64,000 bases of DNA from Trueperaceae bacterium (lineage in GTDB: Bacteria > Deinococcota > Deinococci > Deinococcales > Trueperaceae), in NCBI GenBank assembly GCA_965213705.1, contig OZ243913.1, forward strand, positions 32,001 through 96,000. The letters are read 5' to 3'. Shown piece after piece: positions 12,360-25,159 of the stretch. Position numbers and translations under genes: made by a program. The notes beneath the pieces were generated by a model, which saw only the letters and a list, made by a program, of their open reading frames with translations, was not told where the DNA came from and ran no database searches. Each line of letters opens with the position of its first letter. The first letter of the stretch is position 1.

Positions 12360-12953
12360 TCACTTGAGCCCCAGTGCTCCCAAAACGCTCGGTCTGATCA
12401 ACTTGTAAAACATCCTCGCCATCTCGTGTGGCGGGGTTTTCATGTCGTCCTCGAGCCAACCCGTGAGAACCGACAGCATCGCTCCGGCGACGAAGTCGGC
12501 TATGACGTTGGGCGGCACGGACGGTTTGACGCCGATGGTCTGAATCGCCTGGTGCGCGGTTTGCGACGCATAAAACCTCAAGCGTTGCAGCATGAGACCG
12601 CCGCCCTGGCCGTTCAGGACGACCCTGAAGAGGGCCGGGTCGCGCTGCACGACCTCGAACACGACCAGCGCGGGGTGCGGCGCGCCGCGCAGGAGGTCTT
12701 GGCTGGAGAATCCCTTGACCTCCTCGAGAATCCCCTCCACCAACGCATCGAACGAACTCAACAACAGGGCGTCTTTGTCGTCGAAATGCAAGTAAAAAGT
12801 CGCTCTCGCCACATCGGCCCGCTCGGTGATTTCGGTAACGGTGATGCTCTCGTAATTCTTTTCTAAAATCAGCGCCATCAGCGCGTCGAACAAGCGCCCC
12901 TGCGACCGCCGCACCCGCCGGTCCTTGGGGGTGGAACGTTCAGAAGTAGACAT
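12360..12953 (-). CDS. TetR/AcrR-family regulator
   Basis: DRRVRRS and ITVTEITERADVARATFYLHFDDK HTH. Divergent from the monooxygenase, with an AGACA-AC-TGTCT palindrome at 13046-13057 between them. Confidence 0.92.
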   Translation of the reverse strand: MSTSERSTPKDRRVRRSQGRLFDALMALILEKNYESITVTEITERADVARATFYLHFDDKDALLLSSFDALVEGILEEVKGFSSQDLLRGAPHPALVVFEVVQRDPALFRVVLNGQGGGLMLQRLRFYASQTAHQAIQTIGVKPSVPPNVIADFVAGAMLSVLTGWLEDDMKTPPHEMARMFYKLIRPSVLGALGLK

Positions 12954-13092
12954 ACACACCCTTCTGTCCAGTAGTAGACGTTTTCGCCCGGTTGTTCTTG
13001 ACGGGCCTTCCTTGCAGCCCCTACATTAACAGTGTGACCAATAGAAGACAACTGTCTATAAACTGACGCTCGTTTGCGAAAGGGGTTGGACC

Positions 13093-14769
13093 ATGACCGG
13101 AAAAGGAACAGGAACTCTTACAGAGACGGACGTGCTCATCGTCGGAGCCGGTCCTACCGGCCTTACCGCCGCTACACTTTTGGCCCGCTACGGGGTGAAG
13201 TTTCGCATCATCGACAAAAACGCTGCGGCGGCTGAGAAGTCCAGGGCGCTGGGTGTGCAGGCGCGCACCCTGGAGCTGTGGGACAAGCTCGGTTTGGCTG
13301 AAGGTGCAGTGGCGCGCGGGCAAGCCCTGCAAGCCCTCAACCTCATTACGAAAGGCACGGTTGATGAAGGCGGTAGGCCGTTTATAGCGTTGGGGCGCGA
13401 CGGGAAGGACATCTCGCCCTACCCCTACCTGCTCATCCACGAGCAGAACAAGACCGAAAAGATGCTCTTAGCCGACTTAGCCGCTCAAATCGGACCAAAG
13501 GGTGCCTACGGCGTCGAGCGGGGTACCGAAATCGTGGGCCTTGTGCCTGCCGAAGACAAGGTGACGGTCGTCTTGCGCCACGAGGACGAACAGCGAGAGA
13601 CTGTAGAAGCGAAGTGGCTGATTGCCGCCGACGGCGCGAGCAGCTTTGTACGCAAGACGCTGGCCTTAGAGTTTGACGGCGCGACCTACGCCGACCCGCT
13701 GTTCGTGGCCGACGTGGACCTCGAGTGGCCCCTGTCACGCGACAAGTTTTACGCCCAGGTGCCGCGCCAGGGAATGCTGACCTTTTTTCCGATGCGCGGG
13801 GACGGCTACTCAGACAACCAGTACCGCATCATCGCGCGTATTCCAAGAGAGTTGGAGAGCAAAGACGAGCTTACGGGTGAGGACATCCAACAAATCTTAG
13901 ACAAGCACAGCGTCGTGAGAGCGAAAATTACCGCCACGCGCTGGGTGTCCAAGTACCGCATCCACCGCCGCATGACCAGGGCGTTTCGTGTCGGGCGTGT
14001 TTTTTTAGCGGGCGACGCGGCGCACATCCACAGTCCAGCCGGAGGTCAAGGGATGAACACGGGCATTCAAGACGCCTGGAAACTCGCCTGGAAACTCGCG
14101 CTCGTGGTGAAGGGTCAAGCGGCTGAAGAACTTTTGGAGAGCTACGAACTCGAGCGTATCCCCGTCGCTAAAGCCGTGCTGAACGGCTCGGACAAAGGCT
14201 TTTCTTTCATCGGCTCACCGAACTACGTTTTTCACCTGCTCCGCAGTGCCCTCCTGCCGCGCCTCACCAGCCTCGCTTCACGCGAAAGTGTTGGCAAGGG
14301 CATCTTCAAGTTTCTCTCGCAGACCTGGATTAACTACCGCAAGAGTCCGGCAGTGGGCAGCGACAAGGGCGCCAAACGGGTCAAGCCCGGCGACCGTGCG
14401 CCCTACGCACGCTTCACCTTGGGTGAGAGCGTCTATTCGCTGCTGCACGGCGTAGACCACCACCTGCTGCTCTTTGCAGGCCGGGGTGCTGACGTGGAGG
14501 CGGAGCGTGCGCGGGCCGAGGCGCAGCTGAACGACTACGGCGTCACAACGCGAGTACACGTTGTCGGCGCTAAAGAGACTGCTTTGCGCGAGGCGTACGG
14601 CGTGGACGAGCCCAGTGCGTTTCTGGTGCGTCCCGACGGACACGTCGCGTGGCGCGGCGCTGTGAGCTTGGATGACTTGGCATCTTACATGGACAGGTTT
14701 TACACACGTTGTACCGAAGCCGAGCAAAAGACAGCGCCCGCGCAGCCGAAGTTTGAGGTCGCCGTCTGA
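13093..14769 (+). CDS. FAD-dependent monooxygenase (PheA/TfdB class A flavoprotein)
   Basis: GAGPTG, ADGASS, GRVFLAGDAAHIHSPAGGQGMNTGIQDA and C-terminal LVRPDGHVAWR. Confidence 0.92.
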   Translation: MTGKGTGTLTETDVLIVGAGPTGLTAATLLARYGVKFRIIDKNAAAAEKSRALGVQARTLELWDKLGLAEGAVARGQALQALNLITKGTVDEGGRPFIALGRDGKDISPYPYLLIHEQNKTEKMLLADLAAQIGPKGAYGVERGTEIVGLVPAEDKVTVVLRHEDEQRETVEAKWLIAADGASSFVRKTLALEFDGATYADPLFVADVDLEWPLSRDKFYAQVPRQGMLTFFPMRGDGYSDNQYRIIARIPRELESKDELTGEDIQQILDKHSVVRAKITATRWVSKYRIHRRMTRAFRVGRVFLAGDAAHIHSPAGGQGMNTGIQDAWKLAWKLALVVKGQAAEELLESYELERIPVAKAVLNGSDKGFSFIGSPNYVFHLLRSALLPRLTSLASRESVGKGIFKFLSQTWINYRKSPAVGSDKGAKRVKPGDRAPYARFTLGESVYSLLHGVDHHLLLFAGRGADVEAERARAEAQLNDYGVTTRVHVVGAKETALREAYGVDEPSAFLVRPDGHVAWRGAVSLDDLASYMDRFYTRCTEAEQKTAPAQPKFEVAV

Positions 14770-14985: not shown

Positions 14986-16266
14986 TTGTCAGATTCTCAG
15001 ACGTCAGACCCAATCCGCCAGCGCACCGTCTCGAGAACCACTCTGGGCGTCGTTGAAAAACCCAGTCCCGCCCGCGTCGACGACGTGTTCGCAAAAGCGT
15101 TCAACTTCACCCGCGCCGACGAGGCGGTGGCGGCAGGGATGCACCCCTACTTCAAACCTATCGCCTCGCAAAACGGCGGCACGGTCGTGGTGGGTGGTCG
15201 CGAAATGATCATCACCGGCTCGAACGACTACCTGGGTTTGACCCAGGACGGTCGCTTGAAAGAGTCCTCACGGCGCGCGCTCGACGACTTCGGGACGAGC
15301 TGCACGGGCTCGCGCTTTTTGACGGGCACCTTGACGTTTCACGACGACTTGGAACTGCGCCTCGCCAAGTTTTTGCAAAAGGAAACCGCGCTGACCTTCA
15401 GCGCCGGGTTTTTGGGCTGCTTGTCTGTCGTGAGCGTGCTGGCGGGTCGCCACGATATTTTGTACTTCGACCGCGAGAACCACGCCTGTCTTTACGACGG
15501 CGCGCGACTGTCGTTCGCCGCGCTGCGCAAGTACGAGCACAACGACGTCGCGGACTTAGAACGGCTGCTCGAGAAAGACAAAGATAAACCCGGCGGCCGG
15601 TTAATTGTCACCGACGGCGTGTTTTCGATGAGCGGACACATCGCCAAGTTACCGGAACTTGTCAAAGTCGCCCGCAAGTACGGCGCGCGAATTATCGTCG
15701 ACGACGCGCACGCGACCGGCGTTTTGGGCAAACACGGCCGCGGCAGCGCCGAGCACTTCGGGTTGAACGAAGAAGTCGACGTCATCGTCGGCACCTTTTC
15801 GAAGTCGTTCGCCTCGGTCGGCGGCTTTATGGCCGGGCCGCGCGAAGTGGTGAACTACGTCAAGCACAAGGCGCGGCCGTTTATTTTCACGGCGGCCTTG
15901 CCCGCCATGCAGATGGCGGCGGCCCTGAAAGCCTTAGACATCATGGAGACCGAGCCGCAGCACCGCGACCAGTTGTGGCGCAACGTGCGGCACTACCACC
16001 GGGGCATGAACGCTCTCGGCTTCGACACGCTGGGCACGCAAACACCAATCGTCCCCGTCGTCATCGGCGACGACGACATGACGCTGCTGTTCTGGCGCGA
16101 ACTGTGGGAAGAGGGCATTTTCACCACGCCGTCGGTGCCGCCCGCGGTGCCGCTGGGACAGAGCATCATCCGCACCTCGGTCAACGCCAACCACGAACCC
16201 CAGCACATCGACGGCATTTTGAGCGCGTTCGAGAAGGTCGGGAAGCGTCTGGGCGTCATCGGCTAG
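14986..16266 (+). CDS. spt: Serine palmitoyltransferase-like alpha-oxoamine synthase (PLP class II)
   Basis: GSNDYLGL, GTSCTGSRFLTGT, DRENHA, DGVFSMSG, DDAH, PLP lysine in GTFSKSFASVGG, RPFIFTA and PPAVP..IIRTS. TTG start chosen from the GGAGG RBS. Confidence 0.8.
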   Translation: MSDSQTSDPIRQRTVSRTTLGVVEKPSPARVDDVFAKAFNFTRADEAVAAGMHPYFKPIASQNGGTVVVGGREMIITGSNDYLGLTQDGRLKESSRRALDDFGTSCTGSRFLTGTLTFHDDLELRLAKFLQKETALTFSAGFLGCLSVVSVLAGRHDILYFDRENHACLYDGARLSFAALRKYEHNDVADLERLLEKDKDKPGGRLIVTDGVFSMSGHIAKLPELVKVARKYGARIIVDDAHATGVLGKHGRGSAEHFGLNEEVDVIVGTFSKSFASVGGFMAGPREVVNYVKHKARPFIFTAALPAMQMAAALKALDIMETEPQHRDQLWRNVRHYHRGMNALGFDTLGTQTPIVPVVIGDDDMTLLFWRELWEEGIFTTPSVPPAVPLGQSIIRTSVNANHEPQHIDGILSAFEKVGKRLGVIG

Positions 16267-16278
16267 CCCGGCCGTCTT

Positions 16279-17388
16279 ATGCTCGCCGTCCGTCCCGTCA
16301 AGGCCAAAGCCGACTTAATCAGGTTCATCGAGTACCCGTACCGAAAGTACCGCACCGACCCCCATTGGGTGCCGCCCTTACGCATGAGCGAGCGCGAGCG
16401 CTTCGACGAGAAGAAAAACCCGTTTTTCGAGCACGGCTGCATGGAGCTGTTTTTAGCTGAGCGTGACGGTCACGTCGTGGGGCGCGTCGCGGGCATCGAC
16501 GACGACCTTCACAACGAGACGCACGGTGACAACACGGCTTTTTTCGGCTTTTTCGAGGCGGAGGACGCGGGGGTGGCTCGAGCCCTCTTAACACAAGTCG
16601 AAACCTGGGCCGCAAGCTTGTCGCGCAGCGCCCTACGCGGCCCCACCAACCCCACCATGAACGACGGCGCGGGCTTTCAAATCAACGCCTTCGACACCGA
16701 CCCCTACGTCATGATGCCCTACAACCCGCCCGAGTACCCGGCTTTTGTCGAGGCGGCGGGCTACCGCAAAATCAAAGACCTCTACGCCTGGTACTTGGGC
16801 TCCGACGTGGGTCCGAGCGAGCGGCTGCTGCGCCTCGCCGACCGCGCCGCGAAACGGTACAGCTTTACGATTCGCCCCGTGCAGATGAAACATTTCGACA
16901 AAGAGGTCGAGCGCGTGCTCGGTTTTTACAACGACGTCTGGGAAAAGAACTGGGGCCAGACGAAGTACACGCCCAAGGAAGCCGAAATCCTCGCCAAAGA
17001 ACTTAAACTTATCGTCGACCCCGAAATGGTGCTGATGTTGGAAATAGAGGGCGAGCTGGCGGGCGTCGCGGTGGGCTTTCCCAACGCCAACCAGCTGTTC
17101 AAAAAAATGAACGGACGACTCTTGCCCTTCGGTATATTTTACGCGCTGCGAGCTAAAAAAATCATGAACGAGATGCGCCTGCCGATTTTGGGCGTCAGGC
17201 CCGAGTACCGCAACAAGGGTTTGGAGCTGGCCCTCATCGCCGAGTTTTGCCGCCGGGGCATCGCGCGGGGCTACACCGGGGCCGAGTGCTCGTGGATTTT
17301 GGAGGACAACGAAGCCATGAACAAGGGCATCGCCGCGGCGGGCGCGGAGCTTTACAAGACGTACCGGCTTTATCAGAAAGAGCTATGA
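16279..17388 (+). CDS. Tandem-GNAT acyltransferase resembling bacterial ceramide synthase (bCerS)
   Basis: FIEYPY..Y..DPHWVPPL, NPFFEH, GRVAGI, FFGFFE, PYNPPEY, WEKNWG, LGVRPEYRNKG and ECSWILEDN..M. Starts 12 nt after spt. Confidence 0.78.
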   Translation: MLAVRPVKAKADLIRFIEYPYRKYRTDPHWVPPLRMSERERFDEKKNPFFEHGCMELFLAERDGHVVGRVAGIDDDLHNETHGDNTAFFGFFEAEDAGVARALLTQVETWAASLSRSALRGPTNPTMNDGAGFQINAFDTDPYVMMPYNPPEYPAFVEAAGYRKIKDLYAWYLGSDVGPSERLLRLADRAAKRYSFTIRPVQMKHFDKEVERVLGFYNDVWEKNWGQTKYTPKEAEILAKELKLIVDPEMVLMLEIEGELAGVAVGFPNANQLFKKMNGRLLPFGIFYALRAKKIMNEMRLPILGVRPEYRNKGLELALIAEFCRRGIARGYTGAECSWILEDNEAMNKGIAAAGAELYKTYRLYQKEL

Positions 17389-17500
17389 CAGGAGGAAGGA
17401 GAAAGGAGAAAGGAGAAAGTGAAGTCACAAACTTTTTCCCCTCTGCTTCTCGGCTCCCCTGCTCCTCCGCCCTGCTACTTGAAGGTGCAGCGACTCAGCT

Positions 17501-18448
17501 GTGAAGCCCCGCGTTCTCCTTACCGGCGCGTCGGGGTTTGTGGGCAGCCACGTCGCCCACAGCTTGGTCGAGGCGGGCTACGCGCTGCGCTGCGGCTTGC
17601 GGCCGACGAGCGCGCGGCGCTGGCTGGAGGGGCTGGACTACGAGCCGGTTTCGCTCGACTTGCAAGACTTAGGCGGGCTCGAGCGCGCCTGCGGCCGCGT
17701 CGACTTAGTCGTCCACGCGGCCGGGGTCACGCGGGCCAAGGACGACGCGACCTTTTTTCGGGTCAACACCGAGGGCACCCTGAACTTGGCGCGGGCGGCG
17801 CAGCGCGCGGGCGTGAGCCGGTTCGTTTTTGTGAGCAGTTTAGAAGCGCGCGGGCCGGACCATGCGAGCGGGCCGGACAGCCCTTACGGACACAGTAAAC
17901 TGGACGCCGAAGGTGGGTTGCGGGCGTTTGGTGAGGGCCTCGAGGTCGTCGTACTGCGACCGGCCGGAGTCTACGGGCCGCGCGACACCGACTTGCTGCC
18001 CCTGTTCAAACTGGCAAAGCTAGGTTATTTGCCCGCCCCCGCGGGCGGCGGCGTGTTGCAACCGGTTCACGCCCACGACGTGGCCGGGGCGGTGATAGCC
18101 GCGGCTTCACGCGCCGCGCGTTTCGGGCCGTTTCCGGTCGCCGAACCGCGCAGCTACACTTGGCCGGAAGTGGGGCAAGGTTTAGAAGCGGCGTTGGGGC
18201 GCAAGGTGAGGACGATAAAGGTGCCTCCGGCTGTTTTTTTGACGGCGGGGTACGGGTTGGAAAGCGTCGCCAAACTGCTCGGCCGGACGCCTCAACTCGA
18301 CAGCCGCCGGGCGCGCGCTCTCGCCGTCCACACCTACACCTGCGACGTGTTGACAACGCAGCGCGACCTCGCCTGGCAACCGCGCTACCCCTTGAGCGCA
18401 GGTCTGGCGCAAACAGCGCGGTGGTACGAACAAAAAAGCTGGCTCTAA
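17501..18448 (+). CDS. NAD(P)-dependent epimerase/dehydratase-family reductase, candidate ceramide reductase (CerR-like)
   Basis: TGASGFVG, VVHAAG, VNTEGT, VSSL, YGHSK (YxxxK) and RPAGVYGPRD. Third gene of the spt operon. Confidence 0.72.
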   Translation: MKPRVLLTGASGFVGSHVAHSLVEAGYALRCGLRPTSARRWLEGLDYEPVSLDLQDLGGLERACGRVDLVVHAAGVTRAKDDATFFRVNTEGTLNLARAAQRAGVSRFVFVSSLEARGPDHASGPDSPYGHSKLDAEGGLRAFGEGLEVVVLRPAGVYGPRDTDLLPLFKLAKLGYLPAPAGGGVLQPVHAHDVAGAVIAAASRAARFGPFPVAEPRSYTWPEVGQGLEAALGRKVRTIKVPPAVFLTAGYGLESVAKLLGRTPQLDSRRARALAVHTYTCDVLTTQRDLAWQPRYPLSAGLAQTARWYEQKSWL

Positions 18449-18648: not shown

Positions 18649-19671
18649 ATGAAGTCTGCGGTTGTGATGGCAGGACTGAGCGTGGTGTTCGGGGTCGTCG
18701 GGCTGGTTCTGGTCGTCGGTGACGACGTGTTTCGCCCTGAAACCTACGTTCTCACTCACTACAGTCCCGGCTTGGCACTGCTGGCACTGTTGGCTTTTAT
18801 CACCGCTTGGTTGGCACCTGCGTTTAGAATCCAGCTGCTGTGCCGTGAGCGCGTCACCCTTCCCTTTTGGCGGGCACTGCTGGTCCAGCTTGCGACTTCG
18901 TTCGGGGCCGCCGTGACGCCGGGCAAGTCGGGGGCCGGGGTCGCCGGGACCGCGGCCCTGAGTACCTTGGGCTTTTCGGTCGGCCAAAGTTTCAACATCG
19001 CCGTTCAACAGGCTTTGCTCGACCTCGCGTTTTACAGCTGGGCGTTGCCGTTGAGCCTCGCCTACCTCGTTTTGAGCGACAAGTTTAAACTCCCTTTGAG
19101 CCTGGAACTTGCCGGCTTGGCGCTTGCGCTCGGTTTGGTTATAGCTTTGCTGTTTCGGCGAAAAGTGCCCGAGTTGCTGTTGCGCGTGGCTTTGACGGCG
19201 GCGCGGCTGCCCCTGCCGGGGCGCGTCAGGCTGTGGTTGCAGCGCGCAACCCACGACTACTACCGGAGCGCTCAAACCGAGTTCAGGCTCAGCCGCACAG
19301 GGTGGTTGGGCGCGCATGTAGCGACGGCGGTGGGCTGGCTGAGCAACTATGCGCTGCTGTGGGCGCTGCTCAAGTTGGACGGGGCCGAGGCCGCGTTGTC
19401 GGGCGTGGTGGCGGTGTTGACGCTGGTGTCCGTTACCGCCAACATCGTGCCGACGCCGGGCGGCTCCGGTTTTATAGAAGTGGCGGTGGGTTTGGCGACG
19501 CAGGCGCAAAGTTCAAGCCGAGTCGCCGCCGCACTGTTGCTGTGGCGACTCGGTACCTTTTACATCATCTTTTTTATCGGTCCTTTCGCGAGTTGGTTGC
19601 TGTACCGTAACCGCTCCGCACAGTTGACGCGGCCCCGCGCCGGAGTCAGGTTGAACGAGCGAGATGTTTGA
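18649..19671 (+). CDS. Lysylphosphatidylglycerol-synthase TM / flippase-like membrane protein (UPF0104)
   Basis: Multi-TM protein with AAVTPGKSG, PTPGGSGFIE and LLWRLGTFY. Confidence 0.82.
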   Translation: MKSAVVMAGLSVVFGVVGLVLVVGDDVFRPETYVLTHYSPGLALLALLAFITAWLAPAFRIQLLCRERVTLPFWRALLVQLATSFGAAVTPGKSGAGVAGTAALSTLGFSVGQSFNIAVQQALLDLAFYSWALPLSLAYLVLSDKFKLPLSLELAGLALALGLVIALLFRRKVPELLLRVALTAARLPLPGRVRLWLQRATHDYYRSAQTEFRLSRTGWLGAHVATAVGWLSNYALLWALLKLDGAEAALSGVVAVLTLVSVTANIVPTPGGSGFIEVAVGLATQAQSSSRVAAALLLWRLGTFYIIFFIGPFASWLLYRNRSAQLTRPRAGVRLNERDV

Positions 19672-20917
19672 CGTGCCGAGCGTTCACTTAGAGGACGCCG
19701 TGAGCGTGACCGGTTTGACCTCGCCCGTTCGCGTCGCCCTGTTTACCGGCGCTTACAACCACATTGCCGACGGGGTGTCTCTGACCCTCAACCGCTTGGT
19801 CCATTACCTAGAAACGCAAGGACACAGCGTGCGCGTGTTCGCGCCGACGGTTCGCGAACCCGAACTGAGCCACAAAGGCACCCTGATACCGGCGTGGTCC
19901 GTACCGGCCCCGGGCCGCCCCGACTACCGCTTGGCGTTGGGTTTGTCGCCGAAAGCGCGCCACGCCCTCAGCGGCTTCGACCCGGACTTGTACCACGTCG
20001 CCACCCCCGACCTGCTGGGCCACCAGGCGCTGCGCTTGGCGCGGCGCTCGGGCAAGCCCGTCGTCGCTTCTTATCACACGCACTTCAGTTCCTACCTGGG
20101 CTATTACGGCTTGGGCAGGCTCGAGCCCCCGCTGTGGTGGGCCTTGCGCCGCTTTTACCGCCGCTGCGACCAGGTTTACGTGCCGACGGCTTCGGTTGCC
20201 GCAAGCCTGCGCGACCACGGCGTCACCGAAGGGCTGCGTTTGTGGCCGCGCGGCGTCGACGCCGCGCGCTTCAACCCTGCTCGGCGCTCTTTTGCCTGGC
20301 GGCGCGCCCACGGAATCGCCGACGACGAGACCGTGCTGATTTTCGTCAGCCGCCTGGTCTGGGAAAAGGGTTTGGAAACGCTCGCTGAAACCGTCGAGGC
20401 GTTGCAACGGCGCGGCGTTCCCCACCGCAGCGTCGTCGTCGGCGACGGGCCGGCCGGTCCGTCGCTGCAACGTCGGCTTCAGCAAACGGTCTTTACGGGT
20501 CGCTTGGAAGGTGCCGAACTTGCAACCGCCTACGCCTCGGCCGACCTGTTTTTGTTTCCGAGCGAGACCGAGACGTTCGGCAACGTGGTTTTAGAGGCGA
20601 TGGCCTCCGGCTTGGCCGCCGTCTGCGCCGACGCGACCGGCAGCCGCGACCTGCAAGTGACGGGGGTAACCGGTTACCTCGTTCCCCCGGGCGACAGCTC
20701 CAGCTTTGCCGAAAAAACTGCGGCGCTCCTGACTCGGCCCAGCCTCCGCCGCGACTTGGCCGACGCTGCTTACGAGCGGTCACAAACCTACCACTGGGAG
20801 GCGGTGCTGGCGCGCGTTGCCGGGTACTACCAGCAGGTGTTGGCGGGACGGGCCACGGAGGGCCGAGCGCCGACCGAACGCGGCCCGGCGGTCAACCGAA
20901 ATAGTCCTCGAGGATGA
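19664..20917 (+). CDS. GT4 glycolipid glycosyltransferase (MgtA/Agt/Sgt1-like)
   Basis: RVALFTGAYNHIADGVSLTLNRL, SYHTHF, WPRGVD, SRLVWEKG and ETFGNVVLEAMASG. Confidence 0.88.
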   Translation: MFDVPSVHLEDAVSVTGLTSPVRVALFTGAYNHIADGVSLTLNRLVHYLETQGHSVRVFAPTVREPELSHKGTLIPAWSVPAPGRPDYRLALGLSPKARHALSGFDPDLYHVATPDLLGHQALRLARRSGKPVVASYHTHFSSYLGYYGLGRLEPPLWWALRRFYRRCDQVYVPTASVAASLRDHGVTEGLRLWPRGVDAARFNPARRSFAWRRAHGIADDETVLIFVSRLVWEKGLETLAETVEALQRRGVPHRSVVVGDGPAGPSLQRRLQQTVFTGRLEGAELATAYASADLFLFPSETETFGNVVLEAMASGLAAVCADATGSRDLQVTGVTGYLVPPGDSSSFAEKTAALLTRPSLRRDLADAAYERSQTYHWEAVLARVAGYYQQVLAGRATEGRAPTERGPAVNRNSPRG

Positions 20918-21761
20918 CTTTGGTGCTTTTGTACTTCCAGTGCCAGCGCCGCCGCGCACCTACGCCTGCGGTCGTCGCGTTTTGGTGATGGCGCACGACC
21001 AAGTCGGGCAGCCACCACACTTGCAAGTCGGCGTTGCGCGCTTGTTCTGCCAGGTGCACCTCTTCAAAGTACATAAAGCCGCGGTACTCGAGGGTCAGCG
21101 CCTCCAACAAGCGGTCTTTCAAAAACACGGCGCTGCCGTGAGGTGCGTAAATTTTCGCGGGTGCGGCGTTCAGGTGCGCACGTTTGAACGCGTCGAGCTT
21201 TTGCTTGGTCACGAAGCCCAAGTCCCAGAGTCGGCTCAGCGGCACGCTGCGCCACACCCACATATACAGGTAAAGCAAAAAACGGGCCGGGCGCGAGCGC
21301 ATAAACGGGTTTTGCCGCGCGCCGTTGTCCAGCAGCACGTTCGGAGCGACGATGCCCACGTCTTCAGGCAAAACGTGCGCGGCCAAACGGTAAAAAAAGT
21401 CGGCGGCGAACTCCAAGTCGGTGTTGACGACGCCCAGCCAAGTCGGGAGCGTTTTGTGCTCGGCCCGCCAGGCCCGGTAGGCGAAAGCGCAGCCGCCCAA
21501 GTAACCCACGTTGCGGCTTTTATAAACGCTCACGCCGGCCGGGAGCGGTTCTTCGTTCGTCCAGGAAGCGCTGCTGTCTGCAACGGCGACAGCCAAACGC
21601 CAACCCGGCGGCAGGGGAAGTCCCTGCAGGTGCGCGACAAAACGGCGCACCTGCGCCTCGTTGTGGTAGTGAACACAGCTCAGCAGGACGGTTACGGCTG
21701 GGTTGCCGTTCTGGTCACCGTTCGTGGCTGCGGCGTCCCGGGTTGAAAGGTCGTCACTCAA
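20892..21761 (-). CDS. Glycosyltransferase family 2
   Basis: VHYHN, NVGYLGG, VVNTDL, QNPF, YAPHGS, FMYFEE and VRHH. Convergent with the GT4 and overlaps its end. Confidence 0.75.
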   Translation of the reverse strand: MSDDLSTRDAAATNGDQNGNPAVTVLLSCVHYHNEAQVRRFVAHLQGLPLPPGWRLAVAVADSSASWTNEEPLPAGVSVYKSRNVGYLGGCAFAYRAWRAEHKTLPTWLGVVNTDLEFAADFFYRLAAHVLPEDVGIVAPNVLLDNGARQNPFMRSRPARFLLYLYMWVWRSVPLSRLWDLGFVTKQKLDAFKRAHLNAAPAKIYAPHGSAVFLKDRLLEALTLEYRGFMYFEEVHLAEQARNADLQVWWLPDLVVRHHQNATTAGVGARRRWHWKYKSTKVILEDYFG

Positions 21762-21965: not shown

Positions 21966-23201
21966 ATGACCCCAGCGACGACCCTCTTGCCGACCCGCGC
22001 TTCGGCTCTCAAAGCCAAGCTGCTCTTCGCCACCATAGCAGCGGGCGGCGGTCACGTCGCGACGGCCGAGGCGATGGCGGCGGCTGTGACGCGCCACTAC
22101 CCAGGGCAGTTGGAGGCGGTTGTCACGGACTACATGAAAGAGGTCGGCAACCGCGAAGCCGCTGTCGCGGCGTTTGACGAGCGCCACAAAGAGTTGTGGA
22201 AAAGAGCCTTGCGTTTTCCCTTGTCGGCGCGCTTGGGCCAGCGGCTTATCGACGCGCTGCCCAACCTCACCGTAAAAGTGCAGCGGCGCTTTTTGGCCCG
22301 CTTTGCCGAGGTCGCCGCGGCCGACTTGGCGGAGCGACGCCCCGACTTGGTCGTTTCGAATCACGGGCTGATAACGACCGGTTTGGCACTTGCCAAACGC
22401 GACTACGGCCTCAGGGTTCCCGTACTGACTTTTGCAACCGAAACGCACAACATCAGCGCCTACTGGGCCGACCCCGAGGCGGACCACATGTTGGTACCGA
22501 ATAGGGGCGTGCTCGCCGACTTAAACCGCATGGGCGTGCCGCTTGACAAGATGGACGTGGTCGGCTACCCGGTGCAACAAGCGTTTTTGCAAGCTCCCGA
22601 CAAAACGGAGGCTCGAGCCCGCCTCGGCCTCTCAATCCGGTTTACCCTCCTCGTTTCGCTCGGCGGCGAGGGCATCGGCGGCGACCCGCTCCAAACGGTG
22701 CGGGTGCTCGCCGCCGCGCGGCCCCACGCCCAAATCCTGGTGATGTGTGGCCGCAACGAAACGCTGCAGCGTAAAGTCGCCGCGCTGCAAGCCCCCAACT
22801 TGCGCGCTTACGGCTTCAGCCGGGACATGGCCGTCTTTTTGGCGGCGAGCGACGTCGTGGTCGGCAAGGCCGGCCCGGCGTCGGTCTACGAAACGCTCGC
22901 GGTGGGCCGGCCCCTGCTGATTACGAGTTATGCCGGCCTCAACGAACAAGGCGTGACTCGGTTCGTCGCCGAACAGGGTCTGGGGCATTACGTTTCCTCG
23001 ACAGCTGCGCTTTTGAAAGCTTTGAGTCTTTACGAGCGAGGCGACCCGGACCAGGGCAATCCGCAAAGCGACAGGGTTCAAGACGTAGCAGCGCGTTGCC
23101 GCGCCCTCGACCTCAAGGGGCAGACCGACGCCGTAGCGCAAGCCATCTGGGGTTACCTGAACCGGTTCAAACCTACACCTTACCAGGACGTGTGGGTTTA
23201 A
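21966..23201 (+). CDS. MGDG-synthase/UgtP-like glycosyltransferase (GT28)
   Basis: GGGHVATAEA, GYPV, LGGEGIG, CGRNE, ASDVVVGKAGP and GLNEQG. Confidence 0.88.
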   Translation: MTPATTLLPTRASALKAKLLFATIAAGGGHVATAEAMAAAVTRHYPGQLEAVVTDYMKEVGNREAAVAAFDERHKELWKRALRFPLSARLGQRLIDALPNLTVKVQRRFLARFAEVAAADLAERRPDLVVSNHGLITTGLALAKRDYGLRVPVLTFATETHNISAYWADPEADHMLVPNRGVLADLNRMGVPLDKMDVVGYPVQQAFLQAPDKTEARARLGLSIRFTLLVSLGGEGIGGDPLQTVRVLAAARPHAQILVMCGRNETLQRKVAALQAPNLRAYGFSRDMAVFLAASDVVVGKAGPASVYETLAVGRPLLITSYAGLNEQGVTRFVAEQGLGHYVSSTAALLKALSLYERGDPDQGNPQSDRVQDVAARCRALDLKGQTDAVAQAIWGYLNRFKPTPYQDVWV

Positions 23202-23208
23202 GAAATCC

Positions 23209-24225
23209 ATGCGCAAAAGGTACTGGCTGACGGTCATCATCTCCGTCGTGTTCGGCGCATTCGCGCTGTGGCTGGTGTTGCCGGAGGCTTTCGCGCCGGC
23301 CAGCCTGGCAACATTGCGGCGTCTGACAAGTCATCACTACGCGGCCGTCGCACTCGTCATAACGGGCTGGTGGTCGGCGGCGGCCGTGCGCTTTATGCTG
23401 CTCAGCCACGCTGTCGGACGGCCCATCCGTTTTCACCAGGGCGTCCGGGTGACTTTAGCGGGTATTTTCGCCGCGACCGTCACGCCTTCGGGTGGGGGCA
23501 GCGGCGTGGGAGTAGCCCTCAGCCTGAACCGCTACGGCTTGTCGCTACACGAGGCCGTCGCCGTGACCACCCTCACCCTGACCCTCGACTTAGCTTTTTT
23601 CACCTGGGCGGTGCCCGCCTCGTTTTTTTACTTGTTGGCCGAGGGTGTGCGCTTGCCCGGCGAAAACTTAGGCGCCTTGGTCGTGGTCGTGTCGCTGGTT
23701 CTGCTGGCGCTGGGCTACCTCGTGACGTTTCGACTGGCGCTGTTGAGCCGAGGTTTGAAAAGAGTCGCGTTTTTGTCGCTTCTGCGCCCGTTGCGGCGGC
23801 GTTTGCTGCGCTTCGTGAACGAGCTGACGACGGCGCACGCGCTGTTCAATGGGCGGGGGGGTTTGGAACACCTGAGTTTTCACCTGTTGACCCTCCTGAC
23901 CTGGCTTTTCCACCTCGGGCTTTTGAACGTGGTGGCTTGGGCGCTCGAGCTGGGCATTCCCCCCCTGGAGTTGCTGGCGCTGCAACTGCTGATTTTAGTC
24001 TTGTCGTTTGCCATCCCCACGCCCGGCGGCAGCGGTTATTTGGAAGCCGCCCTCGCGCTGGCCCTCAGGGGCGACGCGCCCGCCCAGACCCTGTCGGTGG
24101 CGGTGGTGGTGTGGCGCGTGTTCGGCTACTACTTGTATTTTTTGGTCGGCCCCTTGAACAGCTTTACGCTGCTGGCCCGGCGGCGCGGGCCGCGGGCCGC
24201 ACGGGTCAGCCCACCTGATCGATAG
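23209..24225 (+). CDS. Second flippase-like (LPG synthase TM) membrane protein
   Basis: Multi-TM protein with AATVTPSGGG, PTPGGSGYLE and VWRVFGYY. Paralogous to 18649-19671. Confidence 0.82.
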   Translation: MRKRYWLTVIISVVFGAFALWLVLPEAFAPASLATLRRLTSHHYAAVALVITGWWSAAAVRFMLLSHAVGRPIRFHQGVRVTLAGIFAATVTPSGGGSGVGVALSLNRYGLSLHEAVAVTTLTLTLDLAFFTWAVPASFFYLLAEGVRLPGENLGALVVVVSLVLLALGYLVTFRLALLSRGLKRVAFLSLLRPLRRRLLRFVNELTTAHALFNGRGGLEHLSFHLLTLLTWLFHLGLLNVVAWALELGIPPLELLALQLLILVLSFAIPTPGGSGYLEAALALALRGDAPAQTLSVAVVVWRVFGYYLYFLVGPLNSFTLLARRRGPRAARVSPPDR

Positions 24226-25159
24226 GCAGCTTACCTAACGCGTAAGCGACCCTACGCCGGTTCGCTTCGGACAGAAAAGTCCGTAGCGTCGTGCCGGCAA
24301 AAGCCGGATACACCCGCGCGCGCGTGGCCTCGCTTACGTCGCGGCGGCCGAGTTTTGCAGCCAAACCGCGCGCGTCCCGCCCTACCTTGAAGACATCCTG
24401 GGGCCGACCCGCCGCGGCCAGGTGAAAAAAACCCGCCAGGTAGCGCCCGGCGAGCATCTCGAGCCGCTCCACCCCGCGAAAGTACCGCATGATTGTAACG
24501 AGGTCGTTGCGAAACGGCAGGTAAGCCTGGTGCGGCTTGATGCTGGCGCGCGCCTGGTAGAGGTGATAAACCGGGGCGTCCGGCAAAAAGTCGGCCTCCC
24601 AACCGTGCGCCAGCACTTCGATGGTCGTCGGAATTTCGGTGGCGTACATAAAGTAGCCCGGCGGGCTCAGCGGCACTTGCGACAAGACCGCGCGCCGAAA
24701 CACGACCGCGCCCGCGAAAAAACCGCGCGCGGGCGCATAGCTGTGGCCGGCGCGAACCTCCGGCAAGTACGGCGTGTAGGCCGTGCGCCCGGACACGGGT
24801 TCGACAAAAGGCAGCGCCACCATGCCGAGCCTTTCGCCCCGTTTTTCAAAGTGGGCGACGACCTTGGGCAGCGTGTCTTCGTGGGGGTAAGCGTCATCGT
24901 CGAGTTCGAACACGAGGTCGCCGGTCACGTGTCGGAGCGCGTCCCCCAACCCGTCGAAGCCGCGCGGCGCGTCGTGGCGGCACACTTTGACCCCCGGAAA
25001 GTCGTTCAGCATGGCGGCGGTGCCGTCTCGAGAGCCGTCGTCGACCACGACGACCTCGCGCGCAGGACCGGGCAACGTCTCCAGACGGGTCAGCAACCGC
25101 CGCAACGTGTCCCGCCGCGCGTGGGTCGGAATCAAAAAGGTAACGACGGGCTCGAGCAC
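24206..25159 (-). CDS. Glycosyltransferase family 2
   Basis: LIPTHAR, VVVDDGSRDGT, LDDD (DxD) and FMYATE. Confidence 0.85.
   Translation of the reverse strand: MLEPVVTFLIPTHARRDTLRRLLTRLETLPGPAREVVVVDDGSRDGTAAMLNDFPGVKVCRHDAPRGFDGLGDALRHVTGDLVFELDDDAYPHEDTLPKVVAHFEKRGERLGMVALPFVEPVSGRTAYTPYLPEVRAGHSYAPARGFFAGAVVFRRAVLSQVPLSPPGYFMYATEIPTTIEVLAHGWEADFLPDAPVYHLYQARASIKPHQAYLPFRNDLVTIMRYFRGVERLEMLAGRYLAGFFHLAAAGRPQDVFKVGRDARGLAAKLGRRDVSEATRARVYPAFAGTTLRTFLSEANRRRVAYALGKLPIDQVG

Follow-up and report, generated by a model that had tools for sequence, protein, structure and literature searches.

Ceramide synthesis in bacteria has a founding paper, reportedly that of Stankeviciute in 2022 (Nat Chem Biol). 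As given in the parts of the literature drawn on here, the pathway of Caulobacter crescentus consists of Spt (CC_1162), CerS, also called bCerS (CC_1154), and CerR (CC_1164) (PMC11324152, PMC11087976). In E. coli a cluster with the order yghO-aasR-epi-acpR-spt is found at ECD_02850-02854, and yghO has been named an ortholog of aca/bCerS (PMC9386255). Spt-like genes have already been predicted in 40 phyla, according to the portion of the source used here, so the surprise of finding them in a further lineage is limited (PMC11334938).

The window, by which we mean the whole 64,000-nucleotide stretch of DNA that was analysed, has a Trueperaceae MAG as its nearest named relative, in agreement with the earlier note, which had placed it as probable Deinococcota. 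The envelope of this phylum is a textbook oddity, and Deinococcus has alkylamine lipids. Three co-oriented genes lie on the + strand where they had been reported: spt, encoding an Spt-type alpha-oxoamine synthase (14986..16266, 426 aa); a gene for a bCerS/YghO-family tandem GNAT N-acyltransferase (16279..17388, 369 aa); and a gene for a type A extended SDR that falls in the CerR clade (17501..18448, 315 aa). The gaps between them are 12 and 112 bp. The start codon of spt is TTG, 6 nt downstream of GGAGG, and the longest ORF runs from 14950 and encodes 438 aa. The 112-bp spacer (17389..17500) has AGGAGAA repeats and is hairpin-capable, with a predicted fold of -39.5 kcal/mol, a value without a shuffle control; its core 12-mer occurs at 9 places in the genome. 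It is a dispersed element that probably has nothing to do with the pathway. The three core genes stand as described, but the cluster was thought to end at 18448 and likely reaches about 25159; linked glycosyltransferase and flippase genes had been overlooked. A scan for promoters and terminators gave one promoter-like site against 1.0 expected, and nothing usable. Upstream genes for a TetR regulator and an FAD monooxygenase (12360-14769) were considered as cluster parts and rejected; a close copy adjoins in one locus only (L021).

The oxoamine synthase, the only one found in the genome and a single copy, appears to belong to the Spt family, with a putative role in the formation of 3-ketosphinganine from serine. 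All eight motifs quoted in the earlier note were found, and TLGKA is absent. The SPT-type motifs are present, but they are not diagnostic, since they or similar forms also occur among BioF/Kbl proteins: GTFSKS occurs in the BioF of a bio operon and RPFLFST in a Bacillus Kbl. In a quick tree of 54 rows, with anchors checked against NCBIfam cut-offs, the window protein falls in the Spt clade with SH-aLRT 100, together with four proteins above the NCBIfam Spt cut-offs, and BioF and Kbl stand apart. The best PDB match is Sphingobacterium Spt at 357 bits, followed by Thermus AONS/KBL at 310, and the best NCBIfam match is SerpalmtaseCFB, at 446 bits against a cut-off of 640. The protein scores below the cut-offs of all three NCBIfam Spt equivalogs, NF047599/600/603 (446/640, 388/500 and 308/670, score/cut-off), and is therefore not filed under them; these models are lineage-specific, and the enzymes of the Streptomyces and Aureispira clusters likewise fall below cut-off. 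The catalytic residues N92, H178, K285 and R408 are present (mapped by alignment and offset, numbered from 14950).

The second gene had been described as a double GNAT. Its predicted model (pLDDT 88) indeed has two domains, and its best PDB structure matches are tandem GNATs; by sequence, nothing in the PDB matched below E 0.09, and none of the curated NCBIfam models matched. Alignments to YghO-type references are near full length (about 370 aa), with E values down to 3e-73. The protein shares 36% identity with E. coli YghO, 31% with the N-acetyltransferase of the Sphingomonas cluster and 28% with a Bacteroides GNAT, and each of these queries matched only this gene in the genome. Its linkage to spt is kept in 15/17 family loci. 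We infer a member of the bCerS/YghO family, predicted to N-acylate the sphingoid base.

The assignment of the extended SDR as CerR was likewise upheld by a tree, a quick one with long branches, in which it joins the E. coli and Sphingomonas reductases with clade support of 97. It is the best genome match of these two cluster reductases (E 2e-27 and 5e-34), the next-best matches lying at 2e-7 and 3e-8. The TGxxGxxG and YxxxK motifs are intact, and no hydrophobic stretch was detected in the sequence; CerR of Caulobacter is periplasmic. Among 32 Spt-bearing family genomes, 7 have the CerR-type enzyme and 24 a different one, SDR-B, which is usually accompanied in Trueperaceae by an adjoining Rce1-like membrane protein; the two reductases were never found together. 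In most Trueperaceae, SDR-B would presumably take the step of CerR.

For each of the three genes, the tree partner or best match is the equivalent gene of a reference ceramide cluster, which supports the earlier proposal of a ceramide pathway with a presumed (dihydro)ceramide product; the identities are 28–39%, and the references used were the E. coli, Sphingomonas and Bacteroides orthologs, not the tested Caulobacter proteins. Three adjacent genes sharing families with the ceramide enzymes of other bacteria make it likely that a sphingolipid is produced, probably capped with a sugar. Our main reading, to which we give a probability of about 0.8, is that these family members likely build dihydroceramide, which would be glycosylated by a GT28 enzyme and moved across the inner membrane by a flippase. 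In the condensation by Spt, L-serine and a long acyl thioester would give a 3-keto-sphingoid base. Judging from the fatty acids of Truepera, the chains are probably of the iso/anteiso-branched kind. The tandem GNAT would then N-acylate the amine and the SDR reduce the 3-keto group. The order of these two reactions is disputed even in Caulobacter. As had been remarked, the cluster contains no dedicated ACP or acyl ligase, and the genome's one ACP match lies elsewhere. AcpR and AasR, as in the Rhodobacteria-type pathway, were not found beside spt, and AasR matches in the genome reach only 22–30%; either acyl-CoA or the one housekeeping ACP is therefore the likely donor.

The ceramide genes are a family-wide trait, not a peculiarity of this genome. 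Close Spt proteins are present in 97 of 127 family genomes; a second family has them in 18 of its 19 genomes, and none occur in the 216 genomes of three other families, which, judging by family sizes, probably include Deinococcus and Thermus. The genes disappear as a set: five of 37 sampled family genomes had no close Spt, all five also lacked both reductases and GT28, and four lacked the GNAT. The spt-GNAT-SDR order is also found in Streptomyces, Rubrobacter, Acidobacteriota and Gemmatimonadota loci, the nearest relatives of the cluster outside Trueperaceae being in Rubrobacteraceae. Single-gene trees nest Rubrobacteraceae within Trueperaceae, but family monophyly was not rejected in an AU test (p 0.47) and was recovered in an Spt+GNAT tree with support of 98, and thus no direction of transfer is claimed.

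Downstream of the core, a first LPG_synthase_TM membrane protein with an MprF-type flippase domain (18649..19671, +; PF03706, 81 bits; TIGR00374), a predicted lipid flippase, is overlapped by 8 bp by a GT4 glycosyltransferase (19664..20917, +; PF13439/PF00534). The GT28 glycosyltransferase, of MGDG-synthase/UgtP type (21966..23201, +; PF06925/PF04101), is followed after 7 bp by a second LPG_synthase_TM protein (23209..24225, +; PF03706, 100 bits), a predicted glycolipid flippase. The GT28-flippase order is conserved; GT28 is present at 12 of 17 family loci examined and a flippase-domain gene at 14. The remaining genes are less constant. A close copy of the GT4 was found at 1/17 family loci, as was a 289-aa ORF (20892..21761, -) without a Pfam or NCBIfam match and with a GT2-type look by eye only; both are genus-level additions of uncertain connection with ceramide. 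A convergent GT2 (24206..25159, -; PF00535, 79 bits), at 4/17, is loosely linked to the cluster.

The co-occurrence of GT28 and the flippase domain with the core genes points to a glycosylceramide, and we consider it fairly probable, from linkage, that GT28 would place a hexose on the C1 hydroxyl and that an LPG_synthase_TM protein would flip the product. The most serious rival is that the core makes ceramide and that GT28 and the flippases are mere neighbours serving diacylglycerol or long-chain diols. Solved relatives of GT28 are diacylglycerol glycosyltransferases (its PDB match is MGD1, E 2e-25), and GT4 with its flippase looks like a module for glucosaminyl-PG (best NCBIfam match GlcN_PG_synth, 157 of 480 bits). 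A GT28 match is also missing from 4 of the 32 Spt-bearing family genomes and found at 3 of 11 Rubrobacteraceae-type loci, several of the loci being short. This rival is the less likely of the two: GT28 is present in the other 28 Spt-bearing genomes and adjoins the core genes in two phyla, and its type is absent from all five Spt-lacking family genomes and from 18 genomes of three other families.

Improbable, but worth weighing, is the same three-step chemistry with alanine, glycine or another amino acid, the product then being a 1-deoxy-ceramide or some new N-acyl aminolipid. Cys157 replaces an Asn conserved in 9/10 comparators, with C, S, A or M across the clade, so that specificity could differ; HAS has become HAC in part of the clade, the protein lies under every Spt cut-off, and Spt can accept alanine, according to the part of the source consulted (PMC11334938). 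GSRFL and Ala315, on the other hand, agree with Sphingobacterium Spt, and a linked glycosyltransferase fits a C1 hydroxyl, which requires serine.

It is very improbable that the enzyme is a BioF or Kbl in a chance neighbourhood. The genome has no other oxoamine synthase, and this one scores 369–388 bits with BioF/Kbl models, but the Spt tree excludes this, the linkage of spt to the GNAT is conserved, bioB, bioD and bioW have no matches in the genome (a BioY-like match is present), and the best Tdh match is below cut-off, at 225 of 458 bits. Just as improbable is an origin here for the phylum's long-chain diols or alkylamines. The chemotaxonomy of Truepera, in the portion of the source used, gives glycolipids, phospholipids and 1,2-diols and no sphingolipid, which also counts against our main reading, and its polar lipids include an uncharacterised 'complex mixture'; diols are also placed in Thermus and Meiothermus (PMC3072082). 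The three other families, however, have no Spt match in 216 genomes. Least probable is a capnine-type sulfonolipid made from cysteate: SulA-type enzymes share the fold and a cysteate-C-fatty acyltransferase in the PDB matches at 257 bits, but this is 100 bits under Spt, and position 315 (alignment-mapped) is Ala, the Spt state, where SulA has Lys281 (PMC9304779). The notion that a sphingolipid replaces a missing lipid A was weakened by an lpxD-lpxC-like-fabZ-lpxA-lpxB-like-msbA-like run and three LptF/G matches in the genome.

No report of a sphingolipid in Deinococcota was found in the literature searched, though taxon lists of Spt surveys may already contain Deinococcota or Rubrobacter; one paper mentions Truepera, Rubrobacter and sphingolipid genes without linking them (PMC6801134). 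If the main reading is true, the phylum gains a new lipid class, and a ceramide-type lipid could account for part of the Truepera 'complex mixture' (PMC3072082, in the portion used). Three testable candidates outside the known set emerge, namely a ceramide glycosyltransferase of GT28 type, a flippase and a reductase in place of CerR, and R. radiotolerans RSPS-4 and R. taiwanensis are named cultured carriers. More speculatively, and we hold this only tentatively, glycosphingolipids might be ancestral, overlooked lipids of Trueperaceae membranes, made by a lineage-specific module with GT28 as a new type of bacterial ceramide glycosyltransferase, a stand-alone MprF-type domain as its flippase and, in most genera, the non-orthologous SDR-B in place of CerR. 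The module would have crossed between this family and Rubrobacteraceae, which are monoderm; both groups tolerate radiation and desiccation and have habitats in common. In them it may make membranes stiffer and so protect against drying or oxidation.

The likeness to Caulobacter lies in three enzyme families, compared through E. coli and Sphingomonas orthologs. The window cluster differs in its order, spt-bcerS-cerR, in having no AcpR/AasR and no LptF2/G2 alongside, and in carrying GT28 and flippase-domain genes where Caulobacter has phosphoglycerate-type genes. Proteins of the E. coli yghO cluster are each matched best in the genome by the window's GNAT (36%), Spt (39%) and SDR (29%), but that cluster uses a dedicated acyl-ACP. 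Among Bacteroidota, the Spt of Sphingobacterium multivorum (PDB 3A2B) and the NF047600 family give the best PDB and NCBIfam matches and have active-site residues in common with the window enzyme, although Asn116 of the former is Cys in the window and the NF047600 cut-off was missed; the ceramide genes of Bacteroides are scattered, those of the window clustered. Closest are the uncharacterised loci of Rubrobacter radiotolerans RSPS-4 (plasmid 1, RRADSPS_RS14055-14065) and R. taiwanensis, with the same spt-GNAT-SDR order and identities of 70–71% (Spt), 58–59% (GNAT) and 53–54% (SDR), but without GT28 and flippase genes and in monoderm Actinomycetota. We regard the cluster as a known pathway, met here in a new lineage and with variant parts.

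The three-gene cluster in the window is well supported, by sequence comparison, as an Spt-bCerS-CerR ceramide pathway of a Trueperaceae genome, and the pathway is probably extended by genes for glycosylation and flipping. An earlier note had proposed that this organism makes (dihydro)ceramide, and we put the probability of a ceramide-type product at about 0.8. The three co-oriented genes of that note were confirmed as ORFs, all on the + strand: gene 1, an spt-type oxoamine synthase (14986-16266), whose TTG start at 14986 is preceded by a GGAGG site; gene 2, a GNAT (16279-17388); and gene 3, an SDR (17501-18448). All eight of the motifs quoted for these genes were found. The genome is a single 4.25 Mb contig, 98% complete. 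The nearest named locus is L021, from another Trueperaceae bacterium, whose GNAT is 95% identical and whose DNA aligns to the window at 84% identity along 10.6 kb and, in the upstream flank, at 88% along 4.0 kb. The interval 17389-17500 holds a hairpin element of AGGAGAA repeats, the core of which occurs at 9 places in the genome. Divergent genes for a TetR regulator and an FAD monooxygenase lie upstream of spt (12360-14769) and are not conserved with the cluster.

The motifs had been taken to mark gene 1 as an Spt, but they do not discriminate by themselves, since GTFSKS also occurs in a BioF. The phylogeny that had been called for bore out the assignment: in a quick tree of 54 rows, with 8 loci dropped as duplicates and long branches flagged, gene 1 fell in the Spt clade (support 100) with four proteins scoring over Spt cut-offs, and BioF and Kbl were separate. 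Among solved relatives, Sphingobacterium Spt scored highest (357 bits), followed by Thermus AONS/KBL (310) and Sphingomonas Spt (274); the top NCBIfam model was the Bacteroidota Spt, at 446 bits, under its cut-off of 640. Gene 1 is the sole oxoamine synthase found in the genome, where searches gave no match to bioB, bioD or bioW and no Tdh over cut-off. Spt and sulfonolipid synthase are reported to be told apart by one residue (PMC9304779), at which gene 1 carries Ala; one conserved Asn is substituted throughout its clade. A Spt-clade enzyme on a Priestia megaterium plasmid (L074:4998-6212; 525/640 bits) stands alone, neighboured by neither a GNAT nor an SDR.

Gene 2, predicted to fold as a tandem GNAT, shares 36% identity with E. 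coli YghO, 31% with the enzyme of the Sphingomonas cluster and 28% with a GNAT from Bacteroides; yghO has been described as the ortholog of Caulobacter CC_1154 (PMC9386255). When the cluster reductases of E. coli and Sphingomonas are searched against the genome, gene 3 is the top match, leading by at least 20 orders of magnitude, and it clusters with them in the tree (support 97). With a reductase of the CerR clade, the cluster corresponds to the known pathway in each of its three core genes.

The distribution was counted in 364 genomes of the phylum, excluding the window's own and including the unpublished G033; many are incomplete MAGs, and kin are not independent. Close Spt matches (E up to 1e-120) were found in 97 of 127 Trueperaceae and 18 of 19 genomes of a second family, f5, and in none of the remaining families (0/125, 0/23, 0/68 and 0/1). 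The GNAT (E up to 1e-10) was present in 105/127 Trueperaceae, about six of these being distant matches only, in 19/19 of f5 and in the single-genome family (1/1), with 0, 0 and 0 in the families of 125, 23 and 68 genomes. At two GNAT loci of f5 that were examined, spt was not adjacent. The GNAT of one genome, G032, has internal stops.

Close Spt was found in 32 genomes of a 37-genome Trueperaceae sample. Among these 32, the CerR-type SDR occurs in 7 and a different reductase, SDR-B, in 24, a count that includes one weak match (37%) and one with an internal stop; the two never occur together, and G036 lacks both. SDR-B forms a separate clade outside CerR (support 100). Never found with the CerR-type SDR in 31 genomes, it (L022:9828-10805) is a candidate non-orthologous 3-keto reductase. 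An Rce1-like membrane gene (PF02517; e.g., L022:9115-9831), placed between GNAT and reductase in most Trueperaceae, is present at 13 of 17 family loci, including 12/12 with SDR-B; a search of the window genome for it gave no match.

The core is followed 3′ by a flippase-domain gene (PF03706), a GT4, a convergent 289-aa ORF, a GT28, another flippase-domain gene and, as the last of the set, a convergent GT2, with the end at 25159. GT28 was found in 28/32 Spt-bearing Trueperaceae and 0/5 lacking Spt. In a tally of 17 larger family loci, which left out those of f5 and L087, a flippase-domain gene occurs in 14 and GT28 in 12. From this linkage, GT28 would glycosylate ceramide, a step we consider somewhat favored, and the flippase-domain protein would flip the product. 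The solved relatives of GT28 act on diacylglycerol. Bacterial ceramide glycosyltransferases known so far are GT4 enzymes. By eye, a UDP-galactopyranose mutase-like gene lies between GT28 and flippase at two loci (L080:13076-14185 and L027:13899-14999), a hint that the head group at these loci may be galactofuranose.

Deinococcota are usually said to lack LPS. A role of the predicted ceramide as a substitute for lipid A is weakened by a lipid A-type run outside the window in the same genome (G000:C1:229403-237277, equivalent to L079:7403-15277). It comprises, in order, lpxD (over cut-off), an lpxC-like gene (127/187 bits), a gene for a GnnA-like dehydrogenase, fabZ, lpxA (passing one cut-off), a weak lpxB-like gene and an msbA-like gene, and is similar to a four-enzyme cluster reported in Cyanobacteria (PMC3087551). 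Weak LpxB-family matches occur in 30/36 Trueperaceae, 6/6 of f5, 3/6 of f4, and 0/6 each of f2 and f3. No paper that treats lpxC and lipid A together for Truepera was found.

The closest relatives outside the phylum are in Rubrobacteraceae, including R. radiotolerans, with the cluster on a plasmid, and R. taiwanensis; the GNAT is present in 28/104 genomes of their class, 7 of the 28 unpublished. Trueperaceae and Rubrobacteraceae, which share radiation and drying tolerance, form one clade (support 98-100), which implies transfer from one phylum to the other; the trees disagree on direction. In 6/11 Rubrobacteraceae-type loci, spt is preceded by a gene for a 376-aa membrane protein that matches no Pfam family (e.g., L034:5462-6592). 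In an acidobacterial locus (L038:1821-6565), a gene for an outer-membrane efflux protein and one for an MlaC-like protein, possibly an export module, lie 5′ of spt. No report of sphingolipids or ceramide in Deinococcota, Truepera or Rubrobacter was found among the papers listed by literature searches. A Black Sea study raised predicted sphingolipid producers to 40 phyla, and 'Deinoc' is absent from its main text and preprint (PMC11334938).

In the proposed pathway, Spt would condense serine with an acyl thioester into a 3-keto base, which the GNAT would N-acylate and the SDR would reduce; the relative order of N-acylation and reduction has been disputed (PMC11087976). The single ACP match in the genome makes acyl-CoA or the housekeeping ACP the likely donor. 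The likeness to the Caulobacter pathway is drawn through counterparts of its experimentally tested proteins in E. coli, Sphingomonas and Bacteroides.
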